DNA of 24,000 nucleotides, taken from Moorella sp. Hama-1. GTDB lineage: Bacteria > Bacillota > DSM-521 > Neomoorellales > Neomoorellaceae. Of the stretch, positions 10,465-22,701 are shown one piece after another. A program made the position numbers and the translations under genes. The notes under the pieces are model-generated. The model did no database searches. It was given only the letters and a program-made list of their open reading frames with translations, and was not told the DNA's origin. The stretch covers positions 3,259,570 through 3,283,569 of the forward strand of contig NZ_AP024620.1 in the NCBI RefSeq assembly GCF_023734095.1. Reading direction: 5' to 3'. Every line of letters begins with the position of its first letter. Position 1 is the stretch's first letter.

Positions 10465-10845
10465 TTATTTAATCTCGACGGTGGCCCCGGCTTCTTCCAG
10501 TTTGGCTTTAATACTTTCGGCCTCTTCTTTGCTGACCTTTTCTTTAACCGGCTTGGGGGCTTCGTCAACCAGGGCCTTGGCTTCCTTCAAGCCCAGGGCG
10601 GTAATCTCGCGGACGACCTTGATGACGTTGATCTTCTTATCGCCGGCCGCCTTCAAGATGACATCAAATTCGGTCTGCTCTTCTGCCGGGGCTTCCGCCG
10701 GGGCAGCAGCACCCGGGGCTACGGCCATGGCCACAGGGGCAGCGGCACTGACGCCGAATTCCTCCTCCAGGGCCTTGACCAGCTCGGATAGTTCCAGAAC
10801 CGTCAAGCCTTTGACGGCTTCGATGATCTCCTGCACCTTGCTCAT
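10465..10845 (-). CDS. rplL: 50S ribosomal protein L7/L12
   Basis: [37 protein letters not shown]...[14 protein letters not shown]; 126 aa. ATG at 10845-10843, behind AAAGGAGGAATTTCCATT. The 194-aa track ORF (to 11049) is a spurious extension into the upstream repeat element. Confidence 0.97.
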
Positions 10846-10856
10846 AATGGAAATTC

Positions 10857-10871
10857 CTCCTTTGAAAATAG
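10857..10871. repeat. Left copy of the 15-nt perfect direct repeat flanking element copy A
   Basis: Plus strand CTCCTTTGAAAATAG, identical to 11212-11226. On the minus strand it reads CTATTTTCAAAGGAG and provides the rplL Shine-Dalgarno. Confidence 0.9.
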
Positions 10872-11211
10872 ACTTCTGCCAAAAATGGTTACAACTTACA
10901 GCAACCGCTGCGGGGCTGGCGGTACAGGTCTCCAGGCTCCGTGGTTCTCGGCGAGCAAACTTAGCGCTCAGCCTTCCTCGGCGGCGGGGGTGGCTCGGCT
11001 GTATCCCTTTGAATAAACGCAGCGGGGAGCGGAACTCTTCGTTCCTCAACTTACGTTACGATCCCCATCCCGTTCACCGCCGCCTCGGTGCGGCTTCGCT
11101 GAGTTTGCTCTGCGCCTCAAACCAAGTCGCCTTCCGCCTGTACTCGCCAGCCCCTTCCCTCAGCCTACATTTTCATTGTTCGCTGGCGGGGGCGTCAGCC
11201 CCCATGAGGGG
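10872..11211. repeat. Unclassified non-coding repeat element, copy A (conserved core about 10872-11175)
   Basis: Homologous to 22412-22701 in the same orientation. A 60-nt block is identical (10912-10971 = 22454-22513), and there are further long identical blocks such as CGATCCCCATCCCGTTCACCGCCGCCTCG. No ORF with a start codon and RBS is present. The strand of any RNA product is unknown, but the element must be co-transcribed on the minus strand within the rplJL mRNA. Confidence 0.85.
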
Positions 11212-11226
11212 CTCCTTTGAAAATAG
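11212..11226. repeat. Right copy of the 15-nt perfect direct repeat flanking element copy A
   Basis: Plus strand CTCCTTTGAAAATAG, identical to 10857-10871. It starts 8 nt beyond the rplJ stop codon. Confidence 0.9.
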
Positions 11227-11233
11227 CGTTCTA

Positions 11234-11764
11234 CTAAGCGGCTTCTTCTTTTTGTTTGCGGATGGCCTCCAGGGCGTAGACCAGGTTGCGGATGTTCCCG
11301 GCCAGGACGTTGACCAGGCCGGCCAGGGGTGCCTGGAAGCCGCCAACCACCCGTCCAAGGAGCTGTTCGCGGGATGGTAGATCCGCCAGGGCTTTGATGT
11401 CACCGGCGCTGATGACCTTACCCTGCAGGACGCCGGCTTTGATCTGGAAGGTCTTGCTGTTACGCACTACCTCATTCAAAATTTTAGCCGGAGCTACCGG
11501 ATCAGTGGCGCTGAAGGCGATAGCTGTGGGACCCTCCAGGTACGGTTCCAAGCCCTCCAGGCCCAGTTCCCGGGCTGCCCGGGCCGTCAGGGTATTTTTG
11601 ACTACTTTGAATTCCACCCCGGCTTCCCGCAGCTGCCGGCGGAGTTTGGTCATCTCCGCTACATTGAGCCCCCGGTAATCCGCCAGGAGCGAGACTATGG
11701 AGGCGCCCAACTTTTCTTTTATTTCATTGGTAGCTTCTACCTTGGCTGCGCGCTGTTTGTTCAC
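11234..11764 (-). CDS. rplJ: 50S ribosomal protein L10
   Basis: 176-aa [62 protein letters not shown].... GTG start (plus-strand cac at 11762-11764) behind GACAGGAGGTGGTAAC. Confidence 0.97.
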
Positions 11765-14132: not shown

Positions 14133-14250
14133 TGTCTGTTTGTTGACGCATTCGGGCCAGATAGGGCCTGAAGTTATATTCTACGCCTGCGGGGCTCTTT
14201 CCTGCTTGTCCGTCTATATTATTGCCGGCTGCCTGGAAATTAACTCCTGC

Positions 14251-14316
14251 GAAATGAGATATGAGATGTGGGAGGTGAGAAGTGGGATTCCTGTAGAAAC
14301 TGGCTGCGCCAGTTTT
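14251..14316. repeat. Heptamer-array/hairpin repeat, half copy (family shared with 16790-16898)
   Basis: Six tandem degenerate heptamers GAAATGA GATATGA GATGTGG GAGGTGA GAAGTGG GATTCCT (14251-14292), followed by the hairpin AAACTGGC-TGC-GCCAGTTT (14297-14315). There is no matching inverted right arm. Confidence 0.7.
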
Positions 14317-16789: not shown

Positions 16790-16898
16790 GATATGGGATG
16801 TGAGATGTTAGAGGTGAGATACTTGTTGGAATTGGCTGCGCCAATTCCTATCTTTATAATCCCACTTCTCATATCTCACTTCTCACTTCTCACTTCTC
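16790..16898. repeat. Heptamer-array/hairpin palindromic element filling the tRNA-Tyr/tRNA-fMet spacer
   Basis: The left arm is five heptamers GATATGG GATGTGA GATGTTA GAGGTGA GATACTT (16790-16824). The central perfect hairpin is GGAATTGGC-TGC-GCCAATTCC (16828-16848). The right arm is five inverted heptamers CACTTCT CATATCT CACTTCT CACTTCT CACTTCT (16863-16897). 16795-16821 is complementary to 16872-16898 at 22 of 27 positions, counted by hand. Confidence 0.8.
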
Positions 16899-16901
16899 AA
16901 A

Positions 16902-21729: not shown

Positions 21730-22405
21730 CCTTTTCGGCCTCCAGTTCTTCAACCCTTTGCTCCAAACGCTGGATTTGGCGTTGCAGGCAGAGGAGCATC
21801 TCCGCCACCGGGTCCGGCAGTTCTTCATGGCGGAGGTCTACGGCACTCACTTCGGCATCGGCAATTTTGCGGCCGTTACGTACCACCACTTTCCCCGGCA
21901 CGCCGACCACGGTGCAGTTGGGTGGTACATCCCTAAGGACGACGGAACCGGCGCCGATCTTGACGTTGTCACCGATGGTGATGTTGCCTAAAACCTTGGC
22001 CCCGGCGCTGATTACTACGTTATTACCAATGGTGGGGTGGCGTTTACCCTTCTCTTTGCCGGTGCCCCCCAGGGTAACCCCCTGGTAAAGGGTAACGTTA
22101 TTGCCCACTTCAGCTGTTTCGCCAATGATGACACCCATACCGTGATCGATAAAGATCCCTTCTCCCAGTTTGGCCCCCGGGTGGATCTCAATACCCGTCA
22201 GGAAGCGATTGATCTGGGAGATAATCCGGGCCAGCAGGATCAGGCCCCGGCGGTAACAGGCATGGGCCAGGCGATGGAGGATCAGGGCATGGAAACCCGG
22301 GTAGCAGAGGATGACCTCCAGGAGGCTGTGGGCCGCCGGATCCCGCTGGAAGACAACTTCAATATCCTTCTTTAACCGCCGCCACAAGGTCTTCATCTCC
22401 TCCAA
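21671..22405 (-). CDS. cysE: Serine O-acetyltransferase
   Basis: [30 protein letters not shown]...[60 protein letters not shown] shows the hexapeptide repeats typical of CysE. The start is ambiguous: TTG at 22405, as in the track, or ATG at 22396. The GGAGGAG purine run abuts the ATG. The 3' end overlaps cysS by 59 nt. Confidence 0.92.
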
Positions 22406-22411
22406 AAATAG

Positions 22412-22701
22412 GGTTCTGGCAAAAATGGATTCTTATGGTAAGCATTTGGCTAGGGGGCTGGCGGTACAGGTCTCCAGGCTCCGTGGTTCTCGGCGAGCAA
22501 ACTTAGCGCTCAGTTGCTTAAGCCGCGGGGGTGGCTTTACATTATTTCATAAGAATAAGCGCAGCGGGGAGCGGAGCTCTTCGTTCCTTAATTTACGTTC
22601 CGATCCCCATCCCGTTCACCGCCGCCTCGCTTCGGCTTCGCGCAAGTATCTAGCGCCTCAAACCCTGTACCGGCCAGCCCCTTCCCTCAGCCTGCATTTC
22701 G
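22412..22701. repeat. Unclassified non-coding repeat element, copy B
   Basis: Homologous to and co-oriented with 10872-11175. It has the identical 60-nt block 22454-22513 and the same inverted-repeat pair (22454-22470 / 22664-22681). It occupies the gap between the T-box terminator and the cysE start codon. Confidence 0.85.

Follow-up and report, generated by a model that had tools for sequence, protein, structure and literature searches.

What is the long foldback sequence that separates rplJ from rplL in Moorella sp. Hama-1, a structured RNA that serves its neighbouring genes or a piece of mobile DNA that happens to fold? The question was raised by a first-pass annotation of a window of 24,000 nt (positions 3,259,570 to 3,283,569 of the single 3.32-Mb contig, NZ_AP024620.1), which noted that two related elements, here copies A and B, can each close a domain of about 230 nt with the same 17-bp helix, and which read this as either a structured RNA or internal inverted repeats. 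The window contains the rpoC-rpoB-rplL-rplJ-rplA-rplK-nusG region on the minus strand, and in all descriptions of the elements below the minus strand is the gene-sense strand. An Rfam 15 scan of the whole window at the gathering threshold returned an L10 leader, three tRNAs, one T-box and no other families. A permissive scan (E ≤ 10) of 10800–11300 was empty.

A non-coding foldback module of ~245 nt, which we call the core, has the 17-bp helix as its closing stem or, put differently, as its terminal inverted repeat. The core behaves as selfish mobile DNA rather than as a regulatory RNA of the adjacent genes. Of the original alternatives, the inverted-repeat, mobile side is supported, as is a selected fold, and the evidence argues against a host regulatory RNA.

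The closing helix and the fold of copies A and B

The core of copy A is a 245-nt rod-like foldback hairpin (10912–11157, minus strand) that matches the covariance model of the family (R1, see below) over its full length with 279.7 bits. One strand of the core is laid out as a rod comprising a P1 helix of 17–18 bp, a P2 helix with a tandem G.A, a P3 helix, a G/C-rich P4 helix and a variable tip. P1 of copy A is formed by a 5' arm in the gene-sense direction (11137–11154, minus strand), which is the left terminal inverted repeat of the core, and a 3' arm (10912–10928, minus strand), which is the right terminal inverted repeat; both arms are defined by sequence and by covariation. As annotated, 10912–10928 is the reverse complement of 11137–11154 save for one extra T, and in copy B 22454–22470 pairs with 22664–22681 save for one extra G. 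The single bulged nucleotide described for each copy is present and corresponds to a 1-nt difference in arm length in this subfamily; other copies have a perfect 18-bp closing helix, some with a compensated G-C to C-G swap.

The nested helix is also present. It is P2, whose 5' arm (11113–11123, minus strand, with the tandem G.A inside) and 3' arm (10943–10953, minus strand) are likewise defined by sequence and covariation. The tandem G.A is held by P2 on the minus strand, as CGAG/CGAG in the family consensus. A 65-nt block (10907–10971 versus 22449–22513) is near-identical (97%) between the two copies. Two further pairings reported for copy A are less general. P3, the GAGCAAACT/AGTTTGCTC helix, persists in 54–64 of 68 copies; a 10-copy subfamily that includes copy B has lost it with no compensating change. 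The apical GGAAC-GAAGA-GTTCC hairpin does exist in copy A and is subfamily-specific.

The predicted fold of the copy A core (10908–11158) has a free energy of -134 kcal/mol (z = -8.8), and none of 200 shuffled sequences folds as well. The opposite strand is equally stable (-131 kcal/mol, z = -8.7) because the core is near-palindromic. The core of copy B (22454–22684, minus strand), defined by its match to R1 (198.7 bits), by alignment and by its fold, is decayed. It carries a 14-nt deletion in the 5' internal loop, its P3 is broken, and its fold reaches -98 kcal/mol (z = -3.4).

Modularity, copy number and distribution

A blastn search with copy A against its own genome gave 156 HSPs and 51 near-full composites, and many of the matches were confined to the stretch bounded by the 17-bp helix. 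Alignment of the 51 near-full copies together with their flanks fixed the boundaries of a composite element, in which the core is enclosed by a second repeat, the shell. The composite of copy A is 355 nt long (10857–11211, minus strand), comprises the shell left end, the core and the shell right arm and right end, and lies between the rplJ stop codon and the rplL ATG (10845–10843). Its left end (11188–11211, minus strand) starts with CCCCTCATGG right behind a host GGAG and forms a GGGGGC-TGAC-GCCCCC hairpin; across the aligned copies, the composite starts with CCCCTCATGG immediately 3' of a host (A/G)GGAG. The right end (10857–10888, minus strand) is a conserved 32-nt module with the final bases GGAGGAG, followed a few bases on by a start codon in most copies, and its terminal Shine-Dalgarno (SD) sequence now serves rplL. 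The right end of copy B (22397–22428, minus strand) has its terminal GGAGGAG abutting the ATG at 22396–22394; copy B is without the left-end hairpin and starts just 3' of the T-box terminator.

The rplJ-rplL spacer is 381 nt long here, compared with 13–31 nt in seven related genomes. Just past the rplJ stop codon, the element's final 21 nt recur as a direct repeat (11212–11232, minus strand; 19/21 identical), which is either a long target duplication or an older right-end-like site. Three distinct relatives of the element occur in this spacer in different Moorella species, at lengths of 381 nt (this genome), ~290 nt (G003/G007/G011) and 207 nt (G009). The 'empty' spacers of G002, G004, G001 and G005 already resemble the last ~20 nt of the element, and so may be footprints of lost elements rather than naive sites.

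The shell ends are shared with a second, shorter family (~135 nt) with a different interior. Members of this family have a left end of CCCCTCATGG, a hairpin and CCAGCGAAC, a right-end SD module as in the shell, and an interior that consists of a GAAACTGGCGCAGCCAGTTTC hairpin and CT-rich heptamer repeats. Fragments of the second family lie at 14248–14314 and 16790–16899 of the window, and at least 23 near-identical left ends occur genome-wide. At shell left ends (11188–11215 in copy A), the host GGAG is located 6 nt upstream of a conserved ATG that opens a mini-ORF of 3–11 codons, of which neither frame nor length is conserved. Two mutually exclusive hairpins are possible there (CCNC-TCAT-GNGG and GGNGGC-loop-GCCNCC), and both appear, by eye, to vary compensatorily among variants. 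The terminal motif CTATTTTCGGAGGAG has 162 genome-wide occurrences at two or fewer mismatches. A looser scan found 41 right ends followed directly by another left end (stacked elements) and 90 followed directly by a start codon and an ORF of at least 60 aa. Leaders of the right-end-module kind are absent from the ordinary genes in the window.

The long open frames that cross the element at 10481–11380 (plus strand, antisense to rplL) and 10465–11049 (minus strand, an upstream extension of rplL) are artefacts of a G+C-rich non-coding repeat. A protein-coding core was rejected, since subfamilies are separated by single-base indels; one frame is open through most cores (median 80 codons), which is unremarkable at 60% G+C.

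Iterated nhmmer searches with the core gave 138 matches in the genome, 77 of them full length, spread over 3.3 Mb. These 77 cores fall into three classes by context. In the first, 59 cores lie forward in a shell; in the second, six cores are inverted in a shell, at the same position as the forward ones; the third contains 12 solo cores, whose flanks are unrelated to the shell. Every full-length core is bounded by the 17–18-bp arms, and the solo and inverted copies end exactly there. On a maximum-likelihood tree of the cores the inverted and solo copies are scattered, and well-supported branches force at least four separate events per class. The suggestion of a MITE-like mobile element, initially offered as speculation, is thus supported on its mobile side: the repeat is multi-copy, dispersed, found in both orientations and found also outside its usual carrier. 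The composite of core and shell, rather than the bare core, is the form amplified in this genome.

Matches to the repeat were found in all 12 genomes of the genus searched. Outside the genus, the core occurs in a sister genus (G014) and in one distant genome of another order (G029), with no shell in either, and in G018 the match is confined to the shell left end (the initial ~50 nt of the composite) and does not include the core. Because the core stands alone in G014 and G029, and the shell end alone in G018, the module that the helix bounds as terminal inverted repeat is a separable one. In 46 of 47 cases the core is accompanied by the shell's right inner arm, so the copies offer no clean 'shell minus core' for an empty-site test. 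The G014 core is co-oriented between two genes, and three G029 cores lie 8–13 nt past stop codons on the strand opposite the neighbouring genes. The orientation of the core relative to host transcription is therefore not conserved, which argues against a strand-specific function as a host RNA. A metagenome scan with a conserved 18-mer and an anchor yielded 13 loci, of which seven are true homologues; all seven are Moorella-like, so little diversity was gained. Plasmid, phage and IMG/VR collections gave no matches to the repeat.

Orthologous loci record inversion, decay and loss. The inverted copy at 2,272,936 has the same orientation in G002, the nearest relative (94% identity over 1.2 kb). 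Where this genome has the inverted copy at 703,975, all that is left in G002 is a 3' half in forward orientation, which is explained either by in situ flipping of the core or by two hits on one site. Inverted copies occupy terminal branches of 0.05–0.2, which we describe as long, the median for all 77 cores being 0.064. At the 3,014,321 locus, a deletion between two TACCCG microhomologies in G002 has removed the left end and most of the core and has retained the right arm and the SD (ribosome-binding-site) module. The 123,644 locus has a right-end-like remnant in G002, coreless shells in G006 and G008, and a plain native leader in G011. These comparisons indicate that elements are lost by deletion and leave the replacement ribosome site behind.

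Covariation and strand bias

Within Moorella the cores are 76–82% identical column by column, most pairs are invariant, and the RNAalifold covariation term is small. Divergent homologues (G014, G029 and the family in the rplJ-rplL spacer of G003/G007/G011) form the same rod from different P1, P2 and P3 sequences. For example, the inner seven pairs of P1 change from GUACAGG/CCUGUAC to AUGUAGG/CCUACAU, and P2 changes from GGUUC/GAACC to GGCUC/GAGCC or GGUCC/GGACC. P3 changes from GCAAACU/AGUUUGC to GCAGCCU/AGGCUGA with 6/7 pairs kept, and P4 is altered too. The loop sequences are conserved across orders.

We built the covariance model R1 on 49 copies (245 positions, 42 pairs) and counted pairs in 68 sense-strand copies from several genomes aligned to it. 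Paired cells made up 96.4% of the total, compared with 93.6% in shuffled controls and 34–49% in controls with the pairing slid. Changes on both sides were seen in 21 of the 42 pairs (6.9 ± 1.8 shuffled, with 0/500 shuffles reaching 21; 4–11 slid) and in 71 cells (14.4 shuffled; 4–18 slid), figures that are not probabilities, since the model structure guided the alignment and the copies share ancestry, so that the shuffle control overstates significance. By helix, both-sided changes affect 9/12 pairs of P1, 5/7 of P2 (model helices 4–5) and 3/8 of P4. Covariation had been judged weak from copies A and B; with 68 copies it is clear for the outer helices, and a selected single-strand fold is supported.

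The two strands of the core can be told apart by the mismatches they tolerate. On the gene-sense strand of forward copies, G.U outnumbers A.C on model pairs by 100:34. Within this genome the ratios are 82:29 for forward, 11:2 for inverted and 19:8 for solo copies. The bias is equal in direction in the inverted and solo copies, and it therefore tracks the strand of the core itself rather than the direction in which the host transcribes. Variant types present in more than two copies comprise 17 G.U and 4 A.C (12:3 in this genome alone), ~20 variant types in all, whereas private variant types (two or fewer copies) give 22:24 and 25:21, with no bias. An initial count on a looser set of predicted pairs, in this genome alone, gave 207:188 and likewise no bias; the strand bias emerges only on the conserved pairs of the model and only among shared variants.

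Private variants arose after insertion and look neutral. Shared variants are those carried by copies that multiplied further, and among these A.C mismatches are avoided on one strand. The absence of strand bias from private variants indicates that resident copies are not under purifying selection for pairing. On this sequence evidence, selection for pairing appears to act on propagating and not on resident copies, which speaks against regulation of the host by an RNA. DNA hairpins accommodate G.T as RNA does G.U, and the pairing data therefore fit DNA and RNA alike as the relevant single strand.

Competing explanations and known systems

The best explanation of these results, to which we assign a probability of roughly 60%, is that the core is a selfish, non-autonomous element of Moorella and a few relatives, that its fold is needed for propagation, and that resident copies decay. 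The shell is placed right behind the GGAG of a host Shine-Dalgarno sequence and ends in its own replacement. One strand of the core folds into a long, irregular rod, and this single-stranded fold would be required in cis during copying or movement, most likely as a strand-specific hairpin substrate for an unlinked enzyme. Once inserted, copies would decay neutrally, and the 17–18-bp inverted repeats would allow a flipped core within the carrier. Inserted copies might also affect the host mRNA.

A more specific proposal, which we consider a long shot, is that the core is the cis single-strand substrate, or a guide-like RNA, of an unlinked, strand-specific and as yet unrecognised mobilisation system that acts without target duplication. 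Such a system would have to recognise a rod of 245 nt with conserved internal loops. If true, the core and the SD-regenerating shell would constitute a mobile cassette of two layers that could insert into operons, a ribosomal-protein operon included, and cause no polar damage.

Candidate movers are few. A Y1 (HUH) transposase (PF01797) was not found in this 99.6%-complete genome; Y1 transposases are present in 4/12 genomes of the genus and the repeat is present in all 12. The single tnpB-like gene (295 kb) has its closest copy ~2 kb away and is unlinked to the other 76, and one IS110-type gene adjoins no copy. The only intact reverse transcriptase is of the group II intron type (RVT_1 + GIIM; 624,508–625,836), ~7 kb from the nearest copy; a second, degenerate reverse transcriptase fragment is located at 2,570,906. 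The HEARO/omega-RNA relationship floated in the first-pass annotation is not supported: neither strand matches an Rfam family at E ≤ 10, and the repeat is not linked to tnpB, to iscB or to a reverse transcriptase. A retron msr-msd was rejected as well: the closing inverted repeat is present but there is no adjacent reverse transcriptase. In G001, a 1730-bp IS200/IS605-type element that encodes a Y1 transposase is present three times with 100% identity, which makes it probably active, and two of the three copies lie directly 3' of ...TCAT. This element was rejected as the mover, its left and right ends being unrelated to the repeat.

A classical MITE would account for the 17–18-bp arms as double-stranded binding sites of a DDE transposase and for the internal complementarity as a relic of a palindromic origin; the two arms would change together only because both fit the same protein. 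The core has the exact terminal inverted repeats of such an element and is small, non-coding, multi-copy and dispersed in both orientations. The Chunjie MITE of Geobacter uraniireducens, with 21-bp terminal inverted repeats, 9-bp direct repeats and folding energies of -98 to -130 kcal/mol, is comparable (PMC3184786). We nevertheless regard this origin as rather unlikely. No consistent direct repeat flanks the solo cores, as a target-site duplication would. No longer, autonomous element sharing the core ends was found, and no 5'-partial/3'-partial pair encloses a coding segment (a limit of 6 kb admits only three partial pairs: two fragments that adjoin each other, and two pairs at ~4 kb that are spurious). 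Compensatory changes occur also in the internal helices P2, P3 and P4, and the one-strand G.U preference of shared variants is not predicted by a double-stranded binding site. No clean empty site for the core alone was recovered among orthologous loci, because solo copies are common to G002 and the spacers of farther relatives have diverged.

A cis-acting structured RNA with a host function in mRNA leaders might be a processing or stability element, or an insulator in which the insert is folded away while the upstream and downstream ribosome sites still work. The setting has some of the expected features: 59 of the 77 cores point the same way as the downstream gene and fall within transcription units, copy A lies inside the rplJ-rplL operon, copy B separates a T-box from its gene, the gene-sense strand tolerates G.U, and the loop sequences persist across orders. 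However, the downstream genes are mutually unrelated, the insert is missing at the same sites in related species, and no Rfam family matches; private variants have no strand bias, the bias stays on the core's own strand in inverted copies (11:2), and the three G029 cores oppose their neighbouring genes in strand. We consider a host function of this kind quite improbable. A riboswitch or leader was rejected because of the unrelated downstream genes and the lack of the insert at the same sites in related species.

An inverton, in which recombination at the inverted repeats would flip the ~210-bp interior and so alter the expression of the downstream gene, would suit the six inverted cores, which share one shell position and are scattered on the tree, and the orthologous locus with an inverted core here and a forward 3' half in G002, but is very improbable: a consensus scan found no promoter-like site on either strand of 10780–11300 and hence none inside copy A, the inverted copies are on long terminal branches with one fixed in the same orientation in G002, and the arms covary freely, unlike the sites of a dedicated invertase.

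The repeat system has practical consequences. As thermophilic acetogens, Moorella species are used both as models and as engineering hosts; some 5% of Moorella genes appear to be translated from a ribosome site of this repeat system, and a very stable 245-nt hairpin is present in the leader or intercistronic spacer at roughly 77 loci. The repeat is relevant to annotation (spurious long antisense frames), to models of 5'-UTRs and operons, and to construct design. It also provides a clean case of modular nesting, a foldback unit within a ribosome-binding-site cassette, a signal by which selection on propagating copies can be told from the decay of resident ones, and a tractable entry point to a possibly new route of single-strand mobilisation.

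Among known systems, the hairpin-forming MITEs (Chunjie, Correia, ERIC and Nezha) resemble the core in being 100–400 bp long, non-coding, multi-copy and dispersed, in having ~20-bp terminal inverted repeats and a stable hairpin that spans the whole unit, and in that they can sit in operons. The core differs in that it has no detected target duplication or cognate insertion sequence, its internal helices covary, it shows a one-strand G.U bias, it is usually nested in another repeat, and it is G+C-rich rather than A+T-rich.

REP/BIME sequences, with their RAYT (Y1) partners, are described as palindromes recognised as one-strand hairpins with no DDE signature of inverted repeats and duplication, and BIMEs as mosaic composites with units in alternating orientations (PMC2817692). 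REPs are ~35 nt long, whereas the core is 245 nt long with conserved internal loops in a genome with no Y1. Strand-specific selection of a hairpin, as indicated for the core, fits the chemistry of REP/RAYT and IS200/IS605 systems. IS200/IS605 elements insert next to a fixed tetranucleotide, and the position of the shell right behind the fixed tetranucleotide GGAG resembles this targeting.

The closest parallels to the shell are the REP2 repeats of Neisseria and the IR repeats of Borrelia, which lie immediately upstream of ORFs, supply a ribosome-binding site and contain internal stem-loops (PMC3184786). The shell likewise supplies a ribosome-binding site just upstream of genes. REP2 in addition has a promoter and an ATG, about 25 copies and no nested foldback module, whereas the shell has no detected promoter-like site, sits right behind an existing SD sequence and regenerates one.

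Integron attC sites and the attP site of CTX phage conserve a one-strand structure over sequence, with a variable tip and tolerated extrahelical bases; they are 57–150 nt long, are tied to XerCD or integrase systems and are found in phage genomes or cassette arrays. Their likeness to the core is by analogy only, the core having no cassette, phage, integrase or XerCD context.

The core is therefore a previously undescribed foldback repeat that behaves like MITEs and REPs and fails strict membership of both. Strict membership fails equally for REP/RAYT or IS200/IS605 elements, omega-RNA/HEARO, retrons and invertons, which places the core as a separate variant among the small palindromic non-autonomous repeats, set apart by its size, its conserved internal loops, its one-strand signature and its nesting within an SD-regenerating cassette.
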